The notes beneath the pieces were generated by a model. That model was not told the DNA's origin. It made no database searches and saw nothing but the letters and a program-made list of their open reading frames with translations. A stretch of DNA of 63,962 bases, the filler included, from Basidiobolus ranarum (Eukaryota), in NCBI GenBank assembly GCA_040143965.1. It is 3 parts of 3 records of this genome, joined end to end, with 100 filler letters (N's around TTAATTAATTAA, not from the genome) between each part and the next. Parts side by side here need not be neighbours in the genome. Positions count along the whole stretch, not along the records: positions 43,108 to 63,962 come from JASJQH010007095.1; 2 more parts are not named here. The stretch is one strand, 5' to 3'. The position numbers and the translations under genes were made by a program. Below, piece by piece: positions 4,297-63,962 of this stretch (the first letter of the stretch is position 1; every line of letters begins with the position of its first letter).

Positions 4297-4438
4297 TATT
4301 TCATATGTATAGGTAGAGTATATCTATCGTATTTCGTATGTATAGGTAGAGTATATCTATCGTATTTCGTATGTATAGGTAGAGTATATCTATCGTATTT
4401 CGTATGTATAGGTAGAGTATATCTATCGTATTTCATAT
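4297..4438. repeat. 33-bp minisatellite, about 4.3 copies
   Basis: Unit tatttc(g/a)tatgtataggtagagtatatctatcg starts at 4297, 4330, 4363 and 4396, plus a partial copy. No spacers. Confidence 0.95.
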
Positions 4439-21471: not shown

Positions 21472-21571
21472 NNNNNNNNNNNNNNNNNNNNNNNNNNNNN
21501 NNNNNNNNNNNNNNNTTAATTAATTAANNNNNNNNNNNNNNNNNNNNNNNNNNNNNNNNNNNNNNNNNNNN
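21472..21571. other. Artificial contig-joining spacer (N44-TTAATTAATTAA-N44)
   Basis: 100-nt N run with a palindromic six-frame stop core at 21516-21527. Confidence 0.97.
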
Positions 21572-43007: not shown

Positions 43008-43107
43008 NNNNNNNNNNNNNNNNNNNNNNNNNNNNNNNNNNNNNNNNNNNNTTAATTAATTAANNNNNNNNNNNNNNNNNNNNNNNNNNNNNNNNNNNNN
43101 NNNNNNN
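43008..43107. other. Artificial contig-joining spacer (N44-TTAATTAATTAA-N44)
   Basis: Same 100-nt linker as at 21472. It supplies the false stop of the 2342-aa ORF. Confidence 0.97.
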
Positions 43108-46100
43108 TAATTCTCCATGATACCAGATCAATGGCATAGTGATGAACAGTCATGAAAATCAACTGTTGCCCATTCCAGAGATCATAAAGTGAAAATTGGA
43201 AGAGTGGGCCTGTTTCAATATTGAGGCTTCTCTGCAGCAGATGCACATGGTCCTTGAGTTCCTCGACAGTTTGAATATTACGATGATGAACCTCAAACGA
43301 TTCCTTTCCAGGTGGAAGTACTTGCAGTTTCCACTCACCATTTGTGTTAGTAAAGCGACTACGAAGCATATCGTGCTGATCGAGTATTCCGTCAATGGCT
43401 TTAGATAGATTACCGACACTGATGGGGGTTTGTAACCGTAATAACCAAGACTGATTGAAGTGATTATCATTGGTTTGTTGAGTCTCGAAAAAGTATTCCT
43501 GGATAGGCGTAAGAGGTACAGCTCCTTCCCGAGGTTCCTCTGTCGTTTTGGATATAGCAGTCAAAACAGTAGAGACAGAAGCCTGTTCGCGAATAGTTGG
43601 GTTTTGCATTACTTGTTGCACAGTCAAAGAGATACCATTCTGTCTACTCATAGATGACACCCGAATAGCCGAGATTGAATCACCACCTAAGTGGAAGAAA
43701 GAGTCATTGGCACCTATTTGTGAAGGTGAAATATTAAGAGTCCCAGACCATATCTCAAGCAACATCTTTTCAATGGGCGTAGTGCATTCAACTTTTTGAG
43801 TATTTGCAGATAAACTTTTAAGTTGGTCAATATTCAACGATTTGAAGAAAGCCGTAAGATGTTTGCGATCAACCTTTCCGTTTGCAGTAGTAGGCATTTT
43901 TTGAAGAGGGATCCAGACAGAGGGTACCATGTATGACGGCAAGATCTGTTTAGCGAGATTTCTAGTTTCATCAATGTAGGTAGCTGCAACCTCAGCATCA
44001 GCACCGGTCAGTCTCTCAACCTCAGCATCATTATCACGCATGTCACTATAAGTTATGAATGCTACCAACACTCGTCGATTAGAATTGCTATCTGCCACTA
44101 GTGGGAGAACACAGGCTCTGTCAGTCATGGGATGTTCGTACAGAGCATGTTCAATTTCGTCCAGTTCAATACGCAATCCATTGACCTTGATCTGATTATC
44201 CATTCTTCCAACCATTTCCACAGTACCATCCGTGTTAAATCGACCAAGATCACCAGAGCGGTACATGAGCTCTCCTGGAATGAAGGGATTCTTGACCCAT
44301 GAAGCCTCTGTAAGGTCAGGACGATTGAAATAACCTCGACCAATCTGGGAGCCAGATATGCAAACCTCTCCAATCACTCCTATGGGCACCCGAGATAACT
44401 CAGGATCTAATACATACATATTACAATTTCCGATGGACTTGCCGACATTTCCGATTGAGGATTTCTCACTGATTTTAGGATTCACCGAGCAAACTACAGC
44501 CGTCTCTGTTGGTCCGTAGCAGTTGTAGAAGTCCACAAAGGGAACCCACATATTACGTACCGTAGAGGTCAACATCTCTCCACCAGTTTGAATCCTTTTC
44601 ATGGTTGGGACTTTCTCCGGGTTGACGAAGCTAGCAACGGTTGGTGTTAGGATTGCTGATGTTACTCCCATCGTATTAATACAGCTCTCCAAGTCAGTAA
44701 GTAAGTGATCCTTGGAAGCCACTGCCATCCTGGCTCCGCTTAGGAATGGTAAGAATATCTCCATTACGGAAATGTCGAAGTTGTAATTTGAGAATTGAAG
44801 GATCGAATCTAATTCTGTAACGTTCCAAACTGCTTGTTGTGCTCTGATAAAACTAACTACAGCTAAGTGTTCTAACATGACACCCTTAGGGGTTCCAGTT
44901 GAGCCTGAAGTAAATAATATATAGCATAAATTGGATGAAGTAAGCCCGTCAATGACAGGATTGAGAACTGATTGTTGACTAATGGATTCCTTATCAGAGT
45001 CGATCAGGATCACATTATGCCCGTCGAAGAACTGCTTGTAGCACTCAAGGGTCACCACAACATTGGCTTGAGTTTCATTTACAATGAAACGATTACGCTC
45101 CACAGGGGTGCTCGGATCTAACGGAACATAAGCACCGCCGGCTTTAAGAACCGCCATTATTGCTACCAGTTGCTCCACAGATTTATCCATGCACAATGGA
45201 ACGAGGGAATCCGGTCTTACACCATGCTTGACCAGAAGGTGTGCCAGTTGATTTGAACGCTTGTTTAATTCCTCATACGTTACATACTCTGTGTCTTCAT
45301 ATTGAATAACCACGTTGTTGGGCGTAAGTAGGGCTTGCTTTTCTAGAAGATGGTGCAGGCAGTCATGGATCTCTGAGGTATTGGATTTGTTAATATTGAA
45401 GCTATCAATCAAACTTATCTCTGATTCCGCCATCTTTGGAAGCGCTTGGATTTGGGTTTCACCGTCTGCCTTAATGATGGCTTCAATAATTGCCTCCAGT
45501 CTCTCTAGAAGGTGTCCGGCCAGAGCTTCTGTAACTGAATCACTACTATAATCCAATCTTAAGGCAAGTACTCCGTTTTCGGTCCAGGAATTCAGAGTTA
45601 GTTTGTATTCTGTTGGCTCTAAAATCTTCTCCAATTCAAATTTCAGTTTCACTTCGTTGTCACTCTGAGTATCGTTATCGTCTTGAGACTGGAAATTAAG
45701 AATGGTGTCAAAGCTAATGGTGGTTCCATGCGATTTGCACCACTGGTTGATCTTCTGTAAACCACAATTTTGGAATGGAATACTGGTGAGTAAGTGTAAG
45801 TGAATCTTATGCAACCAATCCACTACACGCATCTCTTTGTTGATTTGGATTCTCAATGGAGAAGTGTTGATGCATGGCCCAATAACCTTATCGATATTCT
45901 TCATGGCCATGTTTCGTCCATTTGTAATAATTCCATACACAAAGTCTTCCTGTGCGTAATACGGCTGTAGCAGTAAGCCCCAGGCTGCCTGTACCACAGT
46001 AGCAAGCGTGACACCCATTGTCTTAGCAAAGTGACGTAGGTCTCTAGTTGCAACTTTAGGTTTTGCTGTCAACTGGAGGTTCTCAGTTTTGAGGAGGTTC

Positions 46101-49100
46101 AAGTCTCCTAGCCTTGGGAAGGTACAGGGCTCTGTACCGGATAAATAACTTGTCCAGTATTTTGACCCCTTGTCATTACTCAAAGCCTTCTCCTCCTTAA
46201 CGCGATAGGCAATGTAATCTTTGTACGGAATGACTGAAGGTCTCATAGTGTCGTTGTAAACTGCTGACAAATCATTCATTGTAATTCTATCAGACCAGCC
46301 ATCGTTGATTGAGTGATGGCGACTGATGATCATCCTGTCTTCACCGTCTCTTACATGGAACAGATGTAAGCGTACGTTGGGCTCTCCAAGAGGGAATCCT
46401 CTGATTACATCATCATCAAGATATTTCTTGACAACTGAGTCGACTTGATCATTATCAATCGTGGATTGCTCGAATTCTAGCTCGAGTTCCCTCAAAACAA
46501 TCTGAAGGTAAGCCCCTGATATTTTTGAATCAAACGGATTGTTAATAAATACTGTTCTCAAAATTGGTAGATCATGAACAATCGTTTTCCAGGCGGAAAT
46601 CAACTTGTCTGTGTCCAAATCCCCAACTAGCTTGTATACATCTCGTACATGATACAGCTCAGGTGATCTCATATTTCCAATAATCAAACCTTCTTGTATA
46701 GGCGAGCATGGGTAAATATCTTCCACATTATGGGCTAGATGCTGGCTATATTGAGGTAGGACTTGATGAACTAATCGATGCAATTCCTCTTCATGCAACG
46801 AAAGAAGTGGGAGATCCGAGACAGTCAGCTCTCCTCTCTCTTTATCAGCACACACGTGAACCGCTTCGATTAATGATTGGCGCCACGATTGCAACCATTG
46901 ACTAACATCTTCCTCCTTGTGAAGAGCATTACTGTATGAGATAGAACAGCAGAGATTGTTGTGCTGTATGGTTACTTCAGCTTCAATAGCATTCATTCTT
47001 CTCCATTTTGGACCAATCAACTTCAAATCAAACTTGTATTTCTCATCAACATCTTGCAACAGTGCCCCTGTCTTTTCTAGATGTTGGAAACGTCCAAGAT
47101 AATTGAAACCAACCTGTGTCTGGTCATTACGAAGAGTTGCAGAGTGTTCTTCATTCAAGTAGCGGAGAAGGCCATAGGTAAAGCCATGATGAGGAATACG
47201 CTTACGAACATCCTTAGTACGTTTTAGTACATCAATGAGAGTATCCCCTGGCTTACTTTGGACGGTAACAGGATAAATAGAGGTGAACCAACCGACAGTT
47301 CGTGAGACATCAATGGAATCATCCCATGGCTCTCGACCGTGACCCTCCGTAGCAATGGTGAGTGACTGAGAGTTAAAAGTCGAGCAGTAAGAAGCGGCAA
47401 GAGTAGAAAGCATGAAATCTACAGCCTCGGTCCTATACGCATCGTTACTTGGGCCAAAGAGTAGCTTGGTATGTTCACTCTCCAAAGTAAACGATAATGT
47501 CTTCACTGTTTCCATGGTGTTCAGCGGGAGCTTGGATACATCGATGGCAAGAGGTTCTATTGGGGATTGCTTTGGCCAATCCTTAAGACTCAATGACTCA
47601 GCATGCTTACTCAATAATTTACTCCAGGCTTTGAAGGATAGGGATTTATACGACAGAGACTGGCCATTAAGAAGCTTCTCAAGATCCTCCCATATAACAC
47701 GCCAAGAAACAAGATCTATAAGGTAATGATGGATAGTCATAAACATCAACTGTTCGCCTTCTGGGAGATCGTAAAGCACAAAGGAGGTAATCGGTCCATT
47801 TTCGATGGAGAGGCTGCGTTGAATCTGGTATACATTTGCTTTCAATTCCTCAACATTTGAAACACGATGCTGTTGAACATTCATATTACTCTCTTCTTCG
47901 GGCACGATTCTTTGTTCCCAGCGACCATCTGTGCGTACAAATCGGACTCGAAGCATTGGATGATGGGCAGCAAGATCGTTCATCGCTTTCTGCAACACCG
48001 TGGCATTGATAGGCTCTCTCACTTTTACCAACCATGAAAGATGGAAATGATTTACTTCCAACTGTTCCACACCAAAGAATTGATGCTGAATAGGAGTGAA
48101 TGGAACTATGCCATTTTCTTCTTCCTCGTCATTAATAGCATGAATATCTTGCTTTCCTGTCACGAATTCTGCATAGTTATTGAGTTGATGGATAGTTGGG
48201 TGCTGAAGAATACTCTGGACGGAGACTTTGACTCCCATTTGGCGACACTGTGAGGATATTTGAATTGCAGAAATAGAATCACCTCCCAAGTGATAAAATG
48301 AATCATCGGTGCCTATAAGAGAGCGCTCAATATTTAGCACGTCTGCCCATACTTCCTGTAGAACCTCTTCCAGTGGAGTGCTAGGCTTCTTCTTGGCTTC
48401 CTTGGGATCTTGAGTAAAGCCACGAAGATAATCAGGATCGCTATCCTTATAGATGGCTTCTAGTGTTTTGAAGTCGGTTTTTCCACTGGTATTAATGGGA
48501 ATCCGAGTCAAAGGGACCCATACAGTTGGTACCATGTATTGGGGTAACTTGGTCCTCATGAGGTCCTGAAGATGGGATATTTGAGCGGTGATTTCGGTGT
48601 GTACTTGATTGTCAATAACAGCTACTGGTCCATCCTCCGAAGTCATATTTTTGATAGTCAAAAAGGCAACTAGAGCACGATGCTTCTTCTTTGTATTCAC
48701 ATTGACATCTAACAATCTTACCGATGCTCTAGAGACTTCAGGATATTGATGCAACGCATGCTCCACTTCGTCCAATTCAATTCGTAATCCGTTCAATTTG
48801 ATTTGATTATCTTTACGACCAAGAATCGTAATTGATCCATCCGGATTAAATCTGGCCAAATCTCCAGATTTGTATAAACGTTCTCCTTCAGTAAATGGGG
48901 AACTGACAAATACTTTTTCGGTAAGATCAGGTTTGTTCAGATAGCCACGTGCAAGTTGAGGCCCACCAAAGCAAATTTCACCGACAGCACCCAAAGGAAC
49001 AGTCTCCAACCTATCATTGAGGATGAACACCTTATTGCGGCCAATGGGCCAGCCGATGTTGGTGCAAGCTGTGGATTCACTCAATGAAGTCCTGATGATG

Positions 49101-50776
49101 GTGTATACAGTAGTTTCCGTTGGACCATAACCGTTATGGAGGGTTGTCCCATTGGTCCAAGCATCGCGTACTGGCTTTGTCAACATCTCACCACCTTGTT
49201 GGAGAAGCTTAAGGGTAGGTACTTCGCTGGGTTTCAATAATCCAGCCACCGTGGTGGTCAATTGGGCTGCTGTCACCTTCATCAAACGAGCCATCTCTGA
49301 CAAATTGGTAAGCAAGTTATTTTTGGAAGCCAAACAGATGCATGATCCAATGGTAAGGTTAACAAAGAAATCAAGAATGGATGCATCGAACGTATAGTTA
49401 GAGAATTGCAAGAAGCGGTCGTTTTGGGTCAAGTTCAAGATCTTTTGATGAGCAGCGACATAGTTGACTACTCCACGATGCTCCAACATCACACCTTTAG
49501 GAGTTCCTGTAGAACCAGAGGTGAAAATAAGATAACAGAGATTGGAAGACTTGAGGCTGGGTATTTCAGGATTTGTAGCTGGTTGCTGGCCTATACTAGT
49601 CTCCTCCCGATCTATTACGACTAGCTGAAGTTCGGAACATTGACTGAATACCTCCTCTAAATTGGAAGTGGTAATGCTTATTCTAGCTTTAGTGTCTTTG
49701 GCGATGAAAGACACACGTTCCATGGGATATTCTGGGTCTAAAGGAACATAAGCAGCACCTGCTTTCAGTACGGCCAGAATAGTAACAATCATATTGATCG
49801 ATTTCTCAAGACAAATTGGCACTATGTCATCAGGTTTCACACCAATTTCGATGAGATGATGGGCGAATCTATTAGCACGCTTGTTTAACTCGTCATAGGT
49901 AACTACCTCCTTATCCTCAAATTGGAGTGCGGCATTCCCGGGTGTTCTCTCTACCTGTCTTTCTATGAGATGATGCAAGCAGGTATCATCTAGTTCTCTA
50001 CTGTAGTCAGATTTTCCTTCTTGCCATATATTCAAAAGTATGTTTTTTTCGTTTTTGGGAGTCCAATTCAATGCCTTCATGGGTGAGTCAAGATTTTGGA
50101 CCAGTGTATTTGCAATATGAACAAATTGGTCAGCAAATAATTGTCCTTGGTCTAGTTGAAAATAATTGTCCGAAAATGTTAGTTGAATGCTGAGCTTTCC
50201 ACCTTCAAGCCAGCCTAACGCACTGACTGCGAGCTATATAGAGAGAAACAAGAAGTCAATACTTGTCTCGAAATCTAATGTGAATTGGCATATTACCTCG
50301 GAATTTTTTTGTAAGTCTAATTTTCTTTCTTTATCGCTGAATGCAACGTAGGTATTATATGGGCTAGTGCCGTCTTCAGCAGAGGAGCCAGAGACTTCAA
50401 AGATACTTGCTGGAGCGATCTTAGCTAACTTCTCAATCCAGTCTGCGACTAGGGAATTCTCCGTTTCTTCGTCATAAACCGAGTAAAATACGTCGAATGT
50501 CTTTAGAGAGACTTGGGATTCCTGATCCCCATAGTTCTTGGTACCAAAGGTGATATCAGAGTTTCTTGTATAGAGATTAAGCAAAATTGTCCACACAGCA
50601 TGTATCAATGCTTTCTCGAGGCCGGGTAGCTCCTTGAGGTTTACACGACTGTAAACTTGGTCCAAGGATACAAGGTCTGTCTGGGTAATCTGGAAATCTC
50701 CACCATTACCAGAGTTAGAACCTTCACTACTGCTGAGTTGCGGAAATTGGCAAACGCTAATCTTCGATGTGTTCAT
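43108..50776 (-). CDS. Multimodular non-ribosomal peptide synthetase: partial C-A1-T1-E1-C-A2-T2-E2, 3' truncated by contig end; intron 50234-50296
   Basis: A cores (YLIFTSGSTGTPKGVML, NGYGPTET, LYKSGDLARF, GRKDNQIKLNGLRIELDE) occur twice. T motif LGGDSISAI occurs twice. E motifs HHYLIDLVSW, EGHGRE, RTVGWFTS and FNYLG; C motif HHSINDGWS. Exon 1 (50776-50297) splices in frame via LAVSALGW...DSPM into ORF 50080. Confidence 0.96.
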
Positions 50777-52220
50777 TGTAGATGGTACTTTTCTCTTGAA
50801 TGGGTTTTTGAATTAATCGTATGCAATATGTCGCTATATATAGATGTTTTCGTTAGTACCATTCAATCGAATGAAGCATCAAGAGTAGCCTACCAACTCG
50901 CCTGTCAATGAATTGAAACTTGCTTGTCAATCATTACCTTTTCAATCCCATCAGAACAAGTAAATTCAATGGCAATATTGGCAATTGTCAGCACAAGTAG
51001 ATGTATCACAGTAGTAATTCAGTCGAGGATTCCCACATTGTAGAATTTCTGACGCCTATCTCTAGTGGATCCGGTGGCAGTCACATCGGCTCTTCATAAT
51101 TGTGTACCGTATAGCGAGTGCTCCAGCCATCTTTTCCTGAACTAGTCATTGCATCTTAGCCATTCCATAATAACAAGAAACTAAATCTGCCTACTCTCAA
51201 ATGGGTTAAAGGTTTCACGCTATCAAGTCCCCAAACCCCGCCACGTGCTACCAAAGAAGGTGAGTGAATGGTAAAAACTCGATTAATATCAGTTAGGTAT
51301 TGCGCAATTCCATGATTTATTAAGTAGCTACATTGCTACAAATAATCAACACGTATGATTTCTCATTGGCAGACCTTTTAGGCAAGTTTGTACGTTTCGA
51401 CTTGAAAATCATTCTTATATTAGGCATTCTGGTGACACCAATCAATCCTAGATACTCTAGTGACTGAGCTCTCCAGTATACGTCTGTGACAACTACGGTT
51501 AAGAAACCTTTTTGCCAGTCAAGAACCAGAACGAAATAAGTGAATATCTCGGGTGCAGTAGAGCGCTTCGCCGATATTCCTACTGCTTTCACCTAATAAG
51601 AAGCATTAGCGCGCTTTGATGGCCCTTTACATACAAAGTGGTGTCTAAGATTCCGATCAATCATCAATATCTATGGTGTGATGAATCTTCAAGCAATCCT
51701 GACTTGGACAAACGGTTAAGTGGATCCAGACATTTTATCGAAACAAGTTCAGATCAGGCACAATACAGCATTGCCAACCCTGCAATTAACACTGGGATTC
51801 AATTTCCAGATGCCCTAGATGAATGGAATGACGTTATTATCTGACAAATCGAAAGCGCTATGCGATCTTCTGCATGACTCCAAGGCGATCAGTGCCTTAC
51901 ATGCAATTGGAGATGAGCGCAGGATTTTAAGGTTGGAAGATCCATCGATAGAGTCTGCATAAATCCAACTATTTCATTGCTATTTGTTATTAAGTCGATC
52001 GCATTGGTGATGATAGTCATGGTTATTCCCTTTTCAGGGCAGGATGGACGTAAATGACTATCTGGACATGTCGATCGTTGCTAATTAGCAATCTTACTCG
52101 GTTACATTTCAGTGCGGAACTTGAATTCAGGCCTTGTTGCTATCGGATATCTACCTCGGCAAAAGCCTTGGCATGATCTCGAGCAAGTAAAGGAACACGG
52201 CTGGAATAGATGGAATAGCT
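50696..52220 (-). repeat. Left arm of a large inverted segmental duplication (NRPS 5' end plus ~1.45 kb upstream)
   Basis: The reverse complement is colinear with 62350-63962, e.g. aaacaagttcagatc at 51741-51755 / 62851-62865 and gttattatctgacaaat at 51833-51849 / 62742-62758. Confidence 0.9.
50834..50843 (-). promoter_or_regulatory. TATA-like element (ctatatatag) of the NRPS promoter
   Basis: About 60 nt upstream of ATG 50776 and exactly conserved at 63815-63824 in the paralogous promoter. Confidence 0.55.
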
Positions 52221-55200
52221 ATTTTGAAAGGAATTAGAACATCTTTGGGATCAGATGGTCCATACAATCCAGTCCATTCTGACAAAAACGTAATTAAAGT
52301 TCAGTATTCTTTGGATATCAGGAACTGCATCCCCCAAATTCCTGGCTACCTTAGAACTTTAAACCAGTTTACACTGTCACTAAGGCGTTTCTGTGGTGGT
52401 TACTTTGTGATTAAAGTATGTAACCCTTGGAGGCTTATAATCATAGTCTCTTTGTAGTAATGATAGTCCTATTGGTGTGTACGTACAGTTGAGCCAAGAA
52501 CGATGCCCAAAGATATTACAGTGGTTTCAAAATTCATGTATTCCCCTGATATGGCTTAATTGTAAGAGTCGCTTGCAAAGTTCTCTTTTGTTGTAGCCAT
52601 TTGAGAACCATTGGAAGTGCTTCATCGTTCTCGTTGGATATTTGGTTGCGGTGAAGTTGTACCTTCACATCAGTATGAAATGTTGAAATGAATCGACTCT
52701 TCTGAATCTTCATCTACGAATCAGAGGATTGAGATGGTCGCGTGCTTCCTATTGCTATCATCTGAATCATTAAAAGTAATAATATATGATGTAAGAACTA
52801 TGATAGGCTTGTTGCAGCCAAAATATCTATAATTCGAATATGTATTCCCGGGAATAGCGCAAAATGGAATGACCATTAAAAAATGTTATTTTACCTGAAA
52901 TTACATTGAATCTTGCGGCATTAATAGTTGGTTAAAAATGAAGATTTGCCGACATAAAACAGGTGGTAAATCAACATTTAACTCAATGTAAAAAGTGTAG
53001 TGCTGCTTAGAACAATCCACCATTGTATTATGAAGGAATAAGATTTAGATGTTTGCTCTCTTGCGGAGTAATGCTAATTGTATGTCGTTAATTTAGTATG
53101 AGTTGAAAAATAGTTAAAGCAAAAATTTAGCGTCCGTATCATGCTTGATATCTCCATAGTTATACAAGCTCATATATCGAGTAGATGTTAGTCGATATTA
53201 TTTAGTCATAGATGCTATAATCCCGTGTGTAATATTAATGTGTATATTAATGAACAGTCAAGGAATTAGCAAAATCGAACCTGATATGCCTTGGAAATTT
53301 GCCAAAGACAACTCATACTACTCTGATATATATTCTGAGCAGCATCATGTGGTTGTTTTTTTGAAACTCATTGTATCTATGGTGTCTATTAATTCTACCT
53401 TTACACACCTAACTCTTTCGTAGCCAACATCCCAGCGAGCAATTTTGGTTTAGTTCAAAGGCAGAATATGTAATTCGGAATCTTTAGCTTGAGGTCTCAA
53501 AGATGTTCAATTTCACCTGAAGAGTCTTCAATTTTCTTTCACTCATTTTCTTAACACTAGATCTTTTCTTTCATTACTATATGCCAGAGTGCAAATATTG
53601 ATTCTCTGCCTGAAAACACTTTCAGCACTGCATGTCCTTGAATACCTTTGCATAAACTCAACTAGTGTATATTGCCCTAACAAAACTATATATCATTAAA
53701 TGCATTTCACCAGCAACTAGTTATCGAAATATGTGCAAAATTCTGGCCTTAATTCGCCAATAAAAATTTGGGTTGGCAAGTATTCTTGAGACTGAAAGAA
53801 AATGATAAAAAACTGTAGTTCAACATGACTGGAATTTTACAGCAAAAATTAAGCCCAATAGGAATCTTTTAATCACATAACTGACAGGTAGTCAATAAAG
53901 CATATGATGCAAGATTCTTTTCAGACCAAAATGGCTCACTCTGTGAAGCCTTAATGTCAACCTGAAAAAGCTTTTTAAGCCCTAGTCTTTGGCATAGGAG
54001 TGGATACTAGTATTTTTATGGGGGATGAAGAAAAACCAACTCAGTGTATTGCCAAGAATGCCAAGCCCTACTACTAGTTACGTTGCTTACTTATTTTAGA
54101 ATGCCTTTATAAGCAAGCTTTATACATAGTTTCATAAGATGTTTCCTACCCTGATCCCATTATTAGTTTGAGAAGTTTAAGACAAAATTGTAAATACCCA
54201 GGTTTCAACTAATAAACCAAAAAGCAAAAAACAGACTTTCTTCTCATAGTCCATGTCACTTCAAATATCCCTGAGAATTCTCAACAATCTTAATATGTTG
54301 AAGAACACTCCTATAAGTCCTTCATCAAATAAAAAAAATGTTCAACAATAACTATATACTACTCCTGTGTAACAGAAGAAAGTATTGCAGGGTAAATTTC
54401 TTATATCTACAATGGTTCCATCAGTAGGCTGCTTAAGGTTAAGTGAAAGGAATCTGATATATTATATATTAAGCTTCCCCATTACAAATTTTCTTTGATA
54501 TTGCTATTCTTGTGCCCTAAGACTTTAAATAAACCAGAAGCAAGTAATGCCACTTATTGAAATACTTGTATACCAGTATTAGTTTACTGTACCTCACACT
54601 CAGTCCCAGAACATGATCTGATCACAGAATATTCTGGTTTTGGTGGTGGTCTTTATCAGTAATCAGCTCCCCCAGTTAGAACTCATACTATTGCTGAATA
54701 TTTTACACCAAATATCTTATATTAAGTGCGTCAAATGCTTTTTACAATGCAATTAGCTTCATATGAGATCAATGGATGGTGGGAATCAGTCTTGTAAGCT
54801 CATTGAAGTATGTCTCAACCAAAATATAATTAGATATTAGACCTCACCAAATGATTGCATCATGAATATCAAGGTTTCCTATTTTGTAATGCTGGAAATT
54901 TCTGGGATATTGAAAGTAAAATAGATTGTTGTATAATAGTTTGGTTTTTGCTTGATGATTTATTAGTTCAAGCTTTTGTATTTATACTTCTGGCCAAAAT
55001 ATCAGAAATTAATGCTGGGAACCTGGTGGAAAAGATGTCACAACAATGCACTAGAGTCAAGGCTTAATCATTAACCAGCTATAATCTCATTCAAGAGTCT
55101 TAGCTGGGCTAGCAGTTATCCATTAGAGACCATATCCAGATGCACCATATTTCAACCATCCCCTACCAACATTGACACCAGTCTAAGGTTATAAATGTAA

Positions 55201-55515
55201 GTGCAAGGCCCAGATGTATTGTATATACCACTATTTCAGTGATAAACTTAAGATATACTTGCCTAATATATGATGGAAACATTGAGAACTTTTTGCCATG
55301 ATTCTGATCTTGGCATACTCATTCACTGCAAATGGAACTCTTCTATTATTAGATTATGATATCATATCTGCTGTGCCATCCTTTCTTGGCAATCTTGGGA
55401 TAGTTCATCCAGGTTACCTTGAATGGAAGTCATGTTCTTTGGAACATTCCATCAAACCTGACTAATCGTGTCATCCCACATATAGTATATTTCCACCAAG
55501 TCCTTCTATGGAAGG

Positions 55516-55832
55516 TGTTGGAGGATCTTGATATAATGGGGGTAGACTTTGGGTATTAGAAGCAACTTATGATAGTGTGTTTTAGTTACTTTATTCTTAA
55601 GAGTATATGGTGACTTATATAGTAGAAAAGTAAATTAATTGTGTGAGATATTCAGTAGTTTGTGTAATAAGATATAATAGATAAGTGAGGGTAATAAGAC
55701 ATACTTGTTATATAGATATAGAGATGTTTCTATTTAGAGTATAGGGGCTATAGATACATTACTTTCAGTTTCTGATATATGTATCATAACTAAAGTTAAC
55801 TAAGATGTTGAATAAGGATTAATTATCCAACA
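55516..55832 (-). mobile_element. Solo LTR of the same copia family (~317 bp)
   Basis: tgttggaggatcttgatataatgggggtagac...aattatccaaca is highly similar to 41702-42019 and to the reverse complement of 42463-42780. Confidence 0.88.
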
Positions 55833-58800
55833 ATTATATTTGTGCATTTGTTGAAGTTAGGAATGGGAATATTATTTAATAGTTTGGCTTGCATTAGAGC
55901 TGGTATAAATGTGTTGATAATAACATTCATTATAAATGCTGAATAAAGTATACTATAAATATACATGCTGAAGGCCAAATTGATTTTGCCTGACAGAGGT
56001 GAAATCCTAAATAAGAATTATGTAAATGGGATTGAATCATGGTTAAAAGGTTTCTTACAAACAATGCTAAAGGAATCCAGTTGGAAAACCATATGGTAAT
56101 CTGTGTAAAAGCAGTTAAAAACCAAGTTATTTGTATTATGAGGGATTTCTGATGATACTCAGACAATTTGATGAGGATCTAATCTAGTTCATCCAAAATT
56201 GATTTTCATGTGGAACTTTTGCATCAGAGATTGATAAGACTCAAACAGAAAGGTCCAGGTTGCAGAGGAATATGAATAATATCCTTGATTAAGTGGACAT
56301 ATGATCAGTAAATAGTATCTTGAATTGTATATTCAGTGGTATTAGTGGCATTGAAGTTATTTGGGAGTTGTTGCAAGTAAGTTACCATATATACTTTTGT
56401 CAAGAGGTAGGCAGACCAATGTTTGGAATATATTCAGGAAGGCATCAGGAACATGTTTACAAAGTCTAGGGCCTGTTTGGCAAGCTTGAGAAAATTATAT
56501 GATTTGAGAGTTTCATATTATATTATAGGTAACTTATGAATATAAAATCACAATGCTATCAGATTAGAACTTATAATCCAGGATGTTTGGATATATAGTC
56601 AATAACTTGAAATTTCAGTGCAGAAAATATGTTGAGAGAAAAACTGATCCACAAACTGTAAGCAACGTAAACGTACATACTATCACCAAGAGTAGTGGAA
56701 TCACCCTAATATCAAAGAAGGCCATTTAGGCTCTACTTTGGCTATGTGGAAAATATAGAGTTAATGCATGGATTGAACGTCGAGATAGTGTCGTTTAAAA
56801 GATGCAAGCAACAAAGGTAAATCAAGGGCGCTAGCGTACATTTCAGATTATGAGCAACACTTATCTAATCAATACTAGCTAGCCGAGATAGGATATATGG
56901 AATAGGAGAATGAGACTAAGATAATACATCCAAATAATATAGGTGTTTGTTAAGTGTAACGGATATAGAGTAGTAATGGATCTAGATGCATTGGTTCCAT
57001 CATCGATGATATCGTAATTGGAATTTTAAAGATGATGGAAGAGATTCGATGTTGCCTAGTGTTTAAGTAGCAACTACCTATCCAATATCAAAGCTTGTAT
57101 ACTTGGCAGTCTTTGGATTTGAATCAACCTAAACCTGAATTGTATCATGATAAGAGCGAGCTAGACTTTCGTGCAGTCAGACTACACTGTATTTGCTTAC
57201 TGTAACAATTAGCTAACTTAATAAATAGGCTTTAAAAGAAGTGTTTGAGAGTCTGGTAAATACCTAAGCCTGGCATTTTCTGACATCAAAGAGAATTTGA
57301 ATATTGCTGCCCATTCCAAGCGAATATTCGACATCATTGAAAACCTAGACGGCATCAAAACTAGTCAAGACAACAATCCTAGCCTTTCCTTCATTGGTAA
57401 TGATGCAATAACTAGGTTCAATACCTTTGAATCAGAGTGAAAATGGTTGGTGGTACATTAGATGAGACTAATAAACTTGCCAGTAAAACACCAGACTTTC
57501 CTGAATTTTGCTATCAAATCGATGAGTCAGTACGTTGTCTTAAATTCCAAGTGAAATGAACTCACTTAGAACTCACCGCAATGGAAGAATAAAAAACCAT
57601 GCCGATATATAACACAGCCTTTTGGGCTGATCCTTCTTCTAGAACTATAGATTTATCTTACCGACTTCACTTATCTGTAGCATTATTGTATCAACTAGAG
57701 CCTATTCCCCTTAGAGACCTGCTGAGATCACGAGTACGGCCAGGCACGAAACTAGCTTTCCCCTCGGACTTGCAAGAGTCTTCAAATATCCACTGGATGC
57801 TACAGAGGTGTAGTGCTCTATCCACTACTGAACCCGTCAATATAGCAACTTTTTAACAACAAGTCAATAGAATTGAAACGTATCCCTGCTTTTTGATGGA
57901 TTTTTATACGGGTTAATGACCAGGAATCAGGTGATTATGGGGGCCTCGTCAAGCCTTGAGTTAGATACAGTGACAGGCATCAGATGAAACGTTGAGGCAC
58001 TACAGCTTAATCAATAGATTCCCCACAGTTCTTCCAGTAACAGCATTACGTAGGAAATATCTTAGTTGCTGCACCACATACGGTGTATCTGCAGTTGGCC
58101 AAGACGCTGCTGTTTATTCAGAATTGCAACGCAGAGAAGGTAGAAATACGAGCAGCATGTTACTCTTTCGTAGGCGACTAAAGAATTCGCGAGGATAATA
58201 AACGGCTTTATGAGTAGAAAATGGGTAGGGATTATTTCCCCCAGGAGTTAAGTGTACCATGCAATGTAACATTGGGTGATTTGAATTTGTGTAGATCCCT
58301 TCCATATAGAAGAACCCTCAATAGAAGCTGGTTGATTTGCAAGCGTGGTATGCCACAAATAACTGTATTACGATTGACAGGACTCAAGTGGGTTCATACC
58401 AGTTTAGTTAATATCCAAAACGAGTATACCGAAAGAACTCGATGCAAACGAGTTTCGAGTGCTCAGGACATATCGACATTGTGAGTCAAGATCCCACGGC
58501 ATACCCTGTATCGTATACAATGTAGCAACTTATTAACCTTTCATACTCACTATAGGTTACTAACATAATGCACAGTTGCGTAAATATTTAGGACTTTCTT
58601 CATTCCACTACTAACTGTGTTATGATGTGCACCATGCTGGCTCAATAAGCCTTGAAAATTATGCGGGAATCCCTTTACGGCATAGATAAATTCAGGATAT
58701 ACTATCCCGGAATATTAACTCACAGATGCTTTATTTAGTATTCAATAATAGATTACTTTATTTACCGACTGCATATTTGGAAATGCTGCGGAATTTTACC

Positions 58801-61800
58801 CACAGGAAAAACCATGCAGAATTTTGGAGCAATTTTTGCATATCATAAGATAATATCTCACATCTGATATCACACGTTATTGCCCAAAGAAGAGAGTTCA
58901 TCCGGAGGTGTCGTAAATCTCCAAGTAAGTTTAGGGTTCGTGACGTTTCTTTACATACCGATGGTCGTGGGATAATTTCAATATTGATTGGCGCATACGC
59001 ACTCACTATTCCTCGATGATTTATTGCGGATGTGTTTGTTGGCGTTTACCAACGTGATATTAGTGCAGAAAATGTGTGACTACTAATATGCACCTCTACT
59101 GGTTTCTCGATACGCATGCATATCGAAAAGTCTATTTATAAATTTGTTGATCTGACTATGTACTGTCACAAATTTCTTGGCAAGTGTGTCTGAACAGACA
59201 AAAGGTACAGCGTTATTACAAAGATCCTGACTACAACTGACTCAATATGTATGAGTATACCTGATTTGAATGCATGATTCTTTCAGAGGCGACCAAGGCC
59301 AAAGGAGTGACCATACCCAACCCACTGCCAAGGACGGAAATCCGGCTATCAAATGGCAAGTGAAGTATTTACCAACAGATTTGTACTGATACTATGGAAA
59401 CCATGTAACCCGTCAGTGCTACCAGTACGGTATTCGTTACAATGCACAGAGCGTACTGTTAAAACACCTGGGGGATTGATGCAGTATTACAGCCAAGAAA
59501 GGACTAATTTCAGTCATGGCTTCGTGAGAATGCTAGTATTATCTACGCCAAACTGTACTTAAAGTTAGTCGTTGCCTTAAATTCTAGCCTAAGGAATTCT
59601 TTCCTCACACTGGTATCACAGGATATGACAGAATCTCAGATTCTAAATAGTAACAATTATCCGAATCATTCTAGGCTTCAGGTGTTTCCTGTGTCAGTGT
59701 TCTTTTGTATAGAACACTTATGAGGATTCTGGAGTCAAGTAAGGATCAGTGACTTTTGAATTCGGTTAATTTAGAAACAAATAACGAAAACAATTATGTA
59801 TTTGCGTATGCTACTACGGTGAGAGATTGTCATATTTGGATGTGCTTCATTCGGGATACACATATTTGTTCATCAATATTGATAATTACAGGAATCGCAT
59901 GAATGCCATTATATGGTGGAATGCTTTTGGTTGATTCAAGTAAGGTGAACTTACTTTTCTGGTGCTGCAAGAGGCTGAAGATGAAAGTAGAGATCAAACT
60001 GTGCATCAAGTAGCGGTATGTCAGAGTGAACAAGGTGAATTATGCGGTGACTACAGATCTTGTAATCAAGATCAATTGTCTGGTTAATAAGTCTTCAATT
60101 CAGAGATATAAGTATTTTAGATCTCGGCTGGTAAGATCATAGTGTTACAATAACTAGCAGATATAATGGGCTTCACTCCGGAACTTAAAATTCCCATCAT
60201 AAACATCTACCTTTACTATGGCCATTGTTTTGGGATATTTATTCTATGTAACCCAATAGCGGGTTAGTTAGATATATGGTTCTGTCGCTCACTGCACTAT
60301 TCACAAATAGAATTACTAGTGTCACTTACCCTTGTGGACCCCTCACCTTTAGAAACCTGTAAGAGGTAGAGGCGCTAGACCTTGGATTCAGCAACTATTA
60401 ATGCACAGTAGATGCAACTTAATCTTGGCCGGGTTGAGTTTTGTCATGTGTGTTTGGACTAAATATTTTTCCTCCAAGATTATAGCTTTGAGAAGATCTT
60501 TCAGCTTGAACTGATAGTTTAATACATTAGATCTTGTCGGGTCAGGTTTCTACCAGATTCTAATGGCCTTAGTACTTCAATTCATCTAAATTACTCTTCT
60601 AAACTTGAGTAACTATCTGTTTTGGATATAAATCCAGTCTATTGGAGATTTAACATGTAGAGCACTTGCTGATTTTCCGACCCCCCTTTTGTCTGGGTAC
60701 TAATTAGATACCGATCCAACACCAAAATATTCGTCAGTGCATACAACTATTACCTAGTTTTTAGGACACATTGGGCCGAGCTGGTCAAGGACTGGTTAGA
60801 GTGTTATGTTCGTAACCACTGATGGTTAAATCCAGGTAACTTCTTCCTTGGGTGAGCAATTCATTTTTTTATTTCGCCGGTCGAATAAGTGAAGGTATTC
60901 TGGCGAGGTTGCGGTCAGTAGATATCCAGTAGACGATTCATTAATGTCTTTTTACCGGTTCAGAATACTTTACAAAAACCCCTGTTTAACTAAGCCTCGA
61001 TTCATCTATGCAGCAACACATAACAGCACTGCCAAACTCTAGCTGAAAATAAAGTAATACTGGAAAGATGTGACATCTTTCGCTTTATTGAACCTAGATT
61101 CTACGTAAAAGTACATTATCAATCAATCATGAAGTTACAATAAAACTTGTTTCTAATTTCAAATATTTAACAGAGTTTGGTGTAATAGTATTTCTGCGGT
61201 AACTAGGTACATACACGAACTAATACAAGTAAGAATGGAGCTATGAATGAATCACCTAATAAAATCATTATTCTTGGCGTTGCTTGTTGCTAGGAAATTC
61301 TACTAACAAAGCTATGTGATTTGGTAGCCAAATGCTATATGTTCGTTTTTCTGAAGCATCATAATTTCACATTTCTTGTTCAGGATCTTTGGAGCAACAG
61401 AGGTGACATAGGCTAACATAGTTGCTTCTAACCAACTAATTATATGTTGACAAGAAACGCTGTATCTTATGAAATACCTGGTGAATGCACTTAAATAAAG
61501 ATGGAAATAGCTCATCCATATTCTTATTGACGGAACACTAGAAGTGTATACACGTGGTACTGCTATTAGTTGAACGCCTATGACTTGTTGCTACTGAAAC
61601 ATGCAAGTCAGCAATCAACTTCTGACTCACAATTGTTGCTTCATATTCCATCAAGACCAAGTTAAGGTGCATCAATACAACAACGATTGTATCATCTAGG
61701 AAGTAAATTGGCTGAGACTAGATTTGTTTAACGTTCCAAATATCCTACTCAAACAACTAGTGTTCCCTCCGTGTCTGCTTTCCATACTGATAGTAAGGCT

Positions 61801-62349
61801 TACAGCGTTCCAAACGATGGGCGTACGACTGATTTACTGCTGTATTTACTTCTCTTTCTGCAGTTTCTTCTGGTTGCTTACCGATCTCATCATCAACTGT
61901 ACATTTTGATCATCTTTTGAGTCAACACTGACATCATACATAGCAAGGCTACTATGAAGTAGCACTTGTTATTCTGGAATAGAATGGTTCGAAATGATTG
62001 AGTTGTACTAAACTAAAGAATCTACACATATATGTAAACAGGTATTTTCAGGAATATTTAAGCCGAAATTGCTCAGTTTAGAAATGAACATCCCGCAATG
62101 CGGATGAAGTCACAACAAGTAGTGAACTAGTTACAATACCTCCGCGGCATAATCCCCCTCCACGTCGCAACACAACCATTTACAAGGACCATGGTATACA
62201 CTCATTCCAAAACATTACACTTGATTGAACAGAGATAGTTCGAAGGGATAAACAGGAGATCTTGTGGTCACCAAAAGAGTTCTTTAATAGAATCAGTCTG
62301 TGTTAATTCATTCGATCTGGAAGATTTTCTCATAAAATCTAACACTGTA

Positions 62350-63962
62350 CCTATACCACGTAGTTCAGCTATGCACCTTTACTCGCTCGAGATTCTGCCA
62401 AGAATTTAGGCATGGTAGGCACTTCATCGGATACTAACAAGGTTCGAATTCCAGTTCACCATACAAATGTGACCAAATGAAAAGTAACTAATTAGTAAAG
62501 ATCGACAGGCTCTTATGGCCAATTACATCAGGCTTTCCTATCAGAAGCAACCATAATGTTACCTCGGGTGCTGTACTAGTGTATTTATGATTGAGTTGAG
62601 ATTCATTCCATTCCAACCTTAACATACTAATCTAAGAGATCGGCTAAATAACAAATAGCTTTTGAACCTTAAAACCCTATGATTATCTCGAGGCACATAT
62701 TTAGGATTGATCGTCATGCACCAGATCGTATAATAATTTCTATTTGTCAGATAATAACAAAGTTAACCTAAATCATTGTAAACTCTAGAGATTCCATCAC
62801 AATCCCAAAGGCTAGCTGAGTTACATGGTCAACGAAGATGTAATGCGCCGGATCTGAACTTGTTTGAACAGAAGGTCTGGATCCCCTAACCGTTTGCCGA
62901 GGTCTTCGTGGCTTGAAGACCCGTCATACGCAGTAACTCTTGCCATAGCTATTTGCTATTGGGGTTTCACTTCAAGTCATCAATTCTAGGAGCTCATTAG
63001 ATACCCGGTATGTAGAAAGTTATCGAAGTCTGGTTCAGAATTGGTGGTTATTATTCTTGGGGGATGAGCAGTAAAAAATCCGGTTAAATACTATCCTGCA
63101 CATCCGAGATGTTCGTGTGAAAAAACTCACCTTGTGTTGCTCAGGATGATGAAAGTCAGTAATTGGCACCATAGGATATTTGATACTAGAAGATTTATAA
63201 TTAATTGGTGACGCTGTAATACCTAATATAAGAAGGATTTGCAAATGAAAAGCACAAACCTGCCGTAAAAGTCTGCCGATGAGAAATCATAGATGTTTAT
63301 TATTTAAGATACTGTATCTTCATGATCATGGAATTGTACAACATCTTTTGGTTGTAATCGACCTTTTAACATACATACAGCTTCTTTGGTAACACGTGGT
63401 GGGTTTTGGGGTTTGATACCGTGAATCCGTCAACCCTTTTGAAGGTAGTAGGATTTGTTTTCTTGTTTGTCACTAAATGACTAAACTATAATGTTTGGTT
63501 CAGTAAGAGATGGCTGGAGCACTTGCTTCCCGGCATATATTGACTAGAAAAATCTATATGCGGATGAAGTTACTGACAGATCTACAAGAGATAAGCGTCA
63601 GTAACTTTGTGATGTGGGAATCCTGGACATAGTCGTCAATGTGATACATCTACTTGTGCTGGCAATTACCAATATTGCTGTTGAATTTGCTTGTCAATCA
63701 CTACCTTTTTAGAACTGTGGTAACAAGCAAGTATCGTTCCATTGACGGGTACAATCTGAGGCTGTTGGTATGCTCTTGATACTTCATTCGATTGTATGAT
63801 ACTAACGAAAATTTCTATATATAGTGACACATTGCAAACTCATAATTCAAAAAACCATTCAAGAGAAAAGTACCATCTACAATGAACACATCGAAGATTA
63901 GCGTTTGCCAATTTCCGCAACTCAGCAGTAGTGAAGGTTCTAACTCTGGTAATGGTGGAGAT
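62350..63962 (+). repeat. Right arm of the inverted segmental duplication (promoter plus 5' end of a second NRPS)
   Basis: Colinear blocks match the reverse complement of 50696-52220. The final 108 nt are identical. Confidence 0.9.
63882..63962 (+). CDS. 5' end of a second NRPS paralog (MNTSKISVCQFPQLSSSEGSNSGNGGD...), running off the window
   Basis: 81/81 nt identical to the reverse complement of 50696-50776, the start of the minus-strand NRPS. Not in the ORF track. Confidence 0.85.
   Translation, partial: MNTSKISVCQFPQLSSSEGSNSGNGGD

Follow-up and report, generated by a model that had tools for sequence, protein, structure and literature searches.

Two NRPS 5' ends of Basidiobolus ranarum, one running leftward from 50776 and the other rightward from 63882 and thus placed head to head, are identical over 108 nt at the very end of a contig, whereas the homologous DNA lying upstream of them is strongly diverged. 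The reading that we favor, with a probability of roughly 0.55, is that a short patch of an old inverted duplication was homogenised by ectopic gene conversion and that the assembler stopped there. Under this proposal the duplication would have generated two head-to-head NRPS 5' ends, each accompanied by approximately 1.2 kb of upstream DNA that is now about 73% identical between the copies; the patch extending from 27 nt before the ATG through at least 27 codons would have been re-homogenised by ectopic (interlocus) gene conversion between the inverted copies; and a short-read assembler meeting the exact repeat for the second time would have stopped, leaving a contig whose last base lies within the tract or at its distal limit. 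If the 13-kb spacer ever inverts, this would then be an infrequent side effect of that recombination rather than a programmed switch. We infer conversion from the contrast between the tract and its flank together with the lack of constraint on the tract, and it is the simplest cause beyond descent and selection.

The window, i.e. the whole stretch of 63,962 nt that was analysed, is comprised of three separate B. ranarum contigs, namely 1-21471 (21,471 nt), 21572-43007 (21,436 nt) and 43108-63962 (20,855 nt), and not of the contiguous DNA assumed in an initial annotation made from the sequence. Its 176 N form four 44-nt runs, two of which flank the 12-mer TTAATTAATTAA in each of two artificial linkers (Table 1). 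Because the DNA of the window is not contiguous, any feature crossing either linker is an artefact. ORFs that seem to stop at a linker, the 2342-aa NRPS ORF being one example, are really truncated by contig ends. The first two contigs are unrelated to the third, which is present in its entirety, its 20,855 nt equalling the length recorded for the contig of the hypothetical protein K7432_005516 (P0003), and which has both of its ends within NRPS coding sequence, position 63962 being a true contig end. The B. ranarum assembly is fragmented, with the contigs bearing NRPS paralogs measuring 5.5-21 kb; a literature search across main texts recovered no publication describing it.

Table 1. Coordinates of the features discussed, in positions of the window
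Feature	Position	Strand	Remarks
Artificial linkers, N44-TTAATTAATTAA-N44	21472..21571 and 43008..43107	no strand	Stops in all frames
Left NRPS exon 2 (A-T-C-A-T-C)	43108..50233	-	Pfam; open to the contig start, gene truncated at its 3' end
Left NRPS intron	50234..50296	-	63 nt, GT..AG, in-frame stop; splice site from sequence
Left NRPS exon 1, K7432_005516 (P0003)	50297..50776	-	160 codons, all matching P0003 residues 1-160
Left arm of the exact inverted repeat	50696..50803	-	27 nt of leader and codons 1-27 of the left NRPS
Old inverted duplication, left diverged arm (upstream)	50804..51880	.	Alignment and BLASTN
Segment between the exact tracts, including both upstream arms	50804..63854	.	13,051 nt; no long ORF, Pfam domain, RNA family, tRNA or tandem repeat
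Right diverged upstream arm, non-coding	62713..63854	.	Alignment and BLASTN; mismatches without codon periodicity
Right arm of the exact inverted repeat	63855..63962	+	27 nt of leader and first 27 codons of the right NRPS-like gene; reaches the contig end
Right copy, visible coding start	63882..63962	+	27 codons, MNTSKISVCQFPQLSSSEGSNSGNGGD; truncated by the contig end

When 62600-63962 was aligned by MAFFT to the reverse complement of 50696-52060, the segment 63855-63962 and the reverse complement of 50696-50803 agreed at 108 of 108 positions, with the final mismatch before the tract (A vs C) at 63854. Given the position of the right ATG, the tract consists of 27 nt of leader followed by 27 codons, in which all third positions are also identical. 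Counted upstream from the end of the window in steps of 54 columns, the identity runs 1.00, 1.00, 0.83, 0.61, 0.48, 0.89, 0.70, 0.44, 0.74, 0.69 and 0.81, while an inverted-repeat search delimits arms of 190 nt with 94% identity at 50696-50885 and 63773-63962. The identity of the tract is significantly above that of the adjoining homologous DNA (108/108 vs 473/651): the chance of 108 consecutive matches is about 1e-15 at the flank identity of 72.7%, and about 4e-8 at the local identity of 70/82 seen in the nearest 82 upstream bases. No other exact repeat in the window is as long as the tract; next come the tandem repeat at 4304-4434, which overlaps itself over 98 nt, and a dispersed match of 41 nt. 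The tandem repeat, in the first contig, is an array with a 33-nt period, its exact direct repeats being offset by 33 nt. The visible length of the tract is a minimum, the contig ending at 63962. Two observations of the initial annotation are thus borne out, namely the cliff itself (108 identical nt from 27 nt before the ATG, with substitutions and indels upstream of it) and the remark that the sequence ends as an assembler would end it at an exact repeat, in that a real contig end abuts the tract.

Upstream of the tract, at 63185-63854, the alignment has 473 matching and 178 mismatching columns, plus 26 gap columns from 7 gap events, and the 72.7% given above is its ungapped identity. BLASTN aligns the arms at 75.3% over 793 columns, with weaker patches of homology reaching to about 51880 and 62713. 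The substitutions at 63185-63854 are balanced (98 transitions, 80 transversions), and the mismatches in the two long ungapped blocks lack three-base periodicity (chi-square p = 0.54 and 0.82). The upstream arms look like old non-coding divergence; the balanced spectrum, the absence of codon periodicity and the indels indicate that the flank represents such divergence and not a RIP-like burst. RIP-like mutation of the arms is ruled out by the spectrum and the indels, and a hidden coding exon is ruled out for the two long ungapped blocks by the lack of codon periodicity. The old duplication proposed in the initial annotation accordingly stands, with its diverged arms, their 98:80 ratio and their indels. 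Within the arms, a 54-nt block at 63639-63692 and 50966-51019 is 89% identical, the adjacent 54-column windows being at 48% and 70%; it may be a promoter element conserved between both genes.

The left gene is an NRPS by its adenylation, carrier and condensation domains, the Pfam matches comprising 2 AMP-binding, 2 PP-binding and 3 Condensation stretches in modular order. All 160 residues of exon 1 are matched in P0003, and the translation of exon 2 is identical to P0003 residues 161-2459 (2299/2299), the database protein thus continuing from residue 161 in agreement with the placement of the intron. The region of approximately 230 residues that precedes the first adenylation domain (49850-50776, minus strand) is without a Pfam assignment. 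The Condensation profile is weakly matched, below cut-off (E = 0.0036), by the start of exon 2 over its final 60 profile positions, and exon 1 shows weak matches to internal parts of giant NRPSs; the N-terminus of the left NRPS may be the relic of a condensation-domain tail.

The right copy consists of 27 codons only. We predict that it continues as a full NRPS beyond the contig end, although it may instead be a fragment and not a gene. Database searches for its continuation identified no second protein of this kind: with exon 1 as query 0 of 393 candidates among proteins of 281-2000 aa passed, and with P0003 residues 1-160 as query 2 of 211 among proteins of 1358-4323 aa passed, these being P0003 itself and P0001 (43%). 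An exhaustive phmmer search of exon 1 against 1.84 billion representatives, a set that merges paralogs closer than 50% identity and that alone covered proteins of 88-280 aa, yielded 13 hits, among which no identical N-terminus was found beyond that of P0003. A metagenome scan with an exact 43-mer from the tract gave 0 matches, and exon 1 protein patterns gave 245 raw matches in metagenomes with 0 confirmed. The "two full NRPS copies" of the initial annotation are an assumption: the contig shows one gene, itself truncated, and 27 codons, whose N-terminus recurs among the database proteins searched only in P0003, the left gene.

One further paralog, P0002 (K7432_009916), is colinear with the left gene (70.4% over 2290 residues) and lacks exon 1. 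This protein of 3615 aa has its start at the beginning of exon 2 and takes up almost the whole of a contig of 11,023 nt. It could possibly be the continuation of the right copy, or equally that of P0121 (K7432_012466), which has exon 1 only; its assignment to the right copy is unsupported, in that over its initial residues its identity with the left gene is no more than about 50-65% and it has no link to the third contig. P0121, a protein of 166 aa on a 7,639-nt contig, reads into an apparent intron, and P0121 and P0002 may be the halves of one NRPS that was split by a contig break near the exon 1/2 boundary.

As a putative interlocus gene conversion event, the locus is comparable to the concerted evolution of inverted paralogs, in which likewise a block of identity rises far above the flanking homologous DNA; between inverted paralogs in general, as here, exchange either homogenises the copies or inverts the spacer, without deletion. 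Unlike in the classic cases, the block shows a single boundary here, the one on its 5' side. The signature of a converted island is thus incomplete, its 3' side lying beyond 63962. The initial annotation had ascribed the identity to homogenisation by ectopic recombination: that part of the claim holds in so far as the identity exceeds what descent and selection would give, and it is weakened by the single visible boundary. A conversion patch between paralogs that causes a contig break is in itself a well-known kind of feature.

Independent, weaker support for recombination would come from the mosaic relatedness of the family, as seen when P0001, P0002 and P0004 are compared at the protein level with the left NRPS (43108-50776). 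In module 1 of the left protein the nearest relative among the paralogs is P0001, with 83-97% identity per 60-residue window across residues 391-660, and in module 2 it is P0002 (53-82% vs 38-68% for P0001). This pattern suggests segment exchange within the B. ranarum NRPS family, but could also be obtained from module swaps or uneven constraint. The NRPS family of Basidiobolus has been described as large and horizontally enriched, with many of its genes, poor in introns, being candidates for transfer from bacteria (Tabima et al. 2020, PMC7466969); neither "gene conversion" nor "paralogs" occurs in the main text of that report.

An alternative that we regard as unlikely, yet deserving of serious consideration, is that the identity is in part non-biological, the right arm belonging to a paralog whose true 5' end resembles that of the left gene without being identical to it. 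Small differences might have been lost by bulge removal or by polishing with mis-mapped reads, or the assembler might have walked from a shared k-mer into the left copy to produce a chimeric end. Consistent with this are the position of the tract next to a true contig end, the location of both contig ends in NRPS coding sequence, where paralogs have common k-mers, and the 5.5-21 kb contigs of a fragmented assembly. Against it, a path out of the unique base 63854 needs reads that contain that base along with at least one k-mer of the tract. Since a de Bruijn or overlap path must leave this unique base, an exact common stretch of at least k bases is probably real, and next to a flank of 73-85% identity even 55-77 nt in common would stand out as abnormal.

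Somewhat more doubtful is the possibility that the identity extends far beyond 108 nt, with large parts of both gene bodies being identical and collapsed into 43108-50803. Such a state could have arisen via extensive homogenisation or if the gene body had recently been duplicated again; what is seen at the contig end would then be a k-mer overlap into the collapsed repeat. It would fit with this that the contig ends in the tract and its opposite end (43108) lies in the same gene, and that this N-terminus is not found on a further database protein, as a collapse of the second body would lead one to expect. However, a de Bruijn contig ends at a repeat either at the fork where the copies diverge or with a k-sized overlap into a longer repeat. 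An overlap of 108 nt would imply k = 108 or 109, and neither value is known to be a default of the common assemblers. Moreover, a repeat of several kb would normally also stop a short-read contig at the left copy, which is here joined to its own upstream arm. If the contig instead ends at the fork of the copies, the tract would be about 108 nt long. In general terms the locus resembles a repeat-induced contig break, in that the contig stops at or in an exact repeat found elsewhere and both of its ends lie in a multigene family; unlike at a simple unitig boundary, the left copy of the 108-nt repeat is traversed.

A third alternative, of very low probability, is that the 13-kb segment is an inversion polymorphism, which by analogy with known systems would be repeatedly re-made by recombination between 5' ends that conversion keeps identical. 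The bounds of such a segment are present, with exact 108-nt arms 13,051 nt apart within the approximately 1.2-kb arms of about 73% identity. A crossover within the tracts would, as the initial annotation pointed out, flip 50804-63854 and swap the upstream regions of the head-to-head genes. The closest comparison is the flip/flop region of Saccharomyces chromosome XIV, in which 24 kb lie between 4-kb homogenised paralog pairs (PMC9731477). It likewise has a segment on a scale of tens of kb between inverted paralogs that homogenisation keeps alike, and recombination between these paralogs re-inverts the segment. The difference is one of extent: Saccharomyces has a near-identical repeat of about 4 kb and both orientations in many strains and species, whereas B. 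ranarum has 108 visible nt, one known orientation and remaining arms that are about 73% identical.

The spacer (50804-63854) has no ORF longer than 95 codons and no tandem repeat, and the third contig as a whole contains no Rfam family and no tRNA. A dispersed repeat family, with copies of 68-253 nt that are 89-97% alike, is represented both in the spacer, between the two NRPS starts (55516-55832), and in the second contig (41702-42780), where it includes one inverted pair; it may be a small transposable element or MITE.

Purifying selection acting directly on the nucleotides of the leader and the initial codons, as in a translational control element, could in principle maintain the identity without any recombination, but we consider this very improbable. 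The exon 1 family retrieved by the exhaustive search has 13 proteins, including P0121, P0122, P0001 and P0123 of B. ranarum and P0124 of B. meristosporus CBS 931.73, encoded on a scaffold of 134 kb; these five were compared with the left gene along with P0004, which was obtained in a separate homolog search. An N-terminal family motif, CQFPxL, is found in the first 14-18 residues, and P0121 agrees with the left gene at 16 of its first 18 residues, both of which are in keeping with some constraint. Nevertheless, only 9-16 of the first 27 residues match in the six members, residues 19-27 vary in all of them, and none of the six nears 27/27. Complete identity at third positions beside a flank that is about 27% diverged would not be expected from selection on the protein. 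The predicted RNA fold of the tract is no better than that of shuffled sequence (z = 0.05), by which an RNA element in the tract is ruled out. Given the weak conservation of the 27 residues and this fold score, selection alone is an unlikely cause of the identity.

Least credible of all, and lower in probability than the recurrent inversion polymorphism, is the switch in peptide output suggested in the initial annotation, here taken as programmed or recurrent flips of 50804-63854 that would re-pair promoters with NRPS bodies: the geometry allows inversion and there are fungal flip/flop precedents in Saccharomyces chromosome XIV (PMC9731477) and the Ogataea polymorpha MAT locus (PMC5720833, PMC4238957), but the visible exact repeat is 108 nt as against 4 kb in Saccharomyces, no RNA gene was detected in the third contig, and a single orientation is on record from one assembly. 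Neither a dedicated recombinase nor long near-identical repeats were found; none of the 28 scanned spacer ORFs of at least 59 aa (out of 85 ORFs of at least 45 aa) gave a Pfam or recombinase-like domain at E <= 0.01, a scan in which intron-split genes can be missed. The orientation in Saccharomyces is reported to be stable on laboratory timescales, making this nearest analogue a polymorphism and not a switch (PMC9731477). In O. polymorpha mating-type switching proceeds by a flip/flop inversion of 19 kb at MAT between inverted repeats, which alters the genes that are expressed (PMC5720833, PMC4238957); the flip there is an induced and regulated event with ties to centromeric silencing, and neither regulatory or recombination machinery nor a silencing context is evident in B. 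ranarum.

In practical terms the locus is mainly a caution about data, in that the window joins three contigs and the identity cliff lies exactly at a contig end, so that 108 nt is a minimum for the tract and a second full gene is putative. Wider interest would attach to it only if inversion re-pairing promoters with synthetase bodies were demonstrated. Should the segment be an inversion polymorphism, isolates or cell lineages would differ in which of the two diverged promoters drives which synthetase body. If gene conversion is the correct explanation, as we favor, the tract would represent one small further case of ectopic recombination shaping the NRPS family of Basidiobolus.
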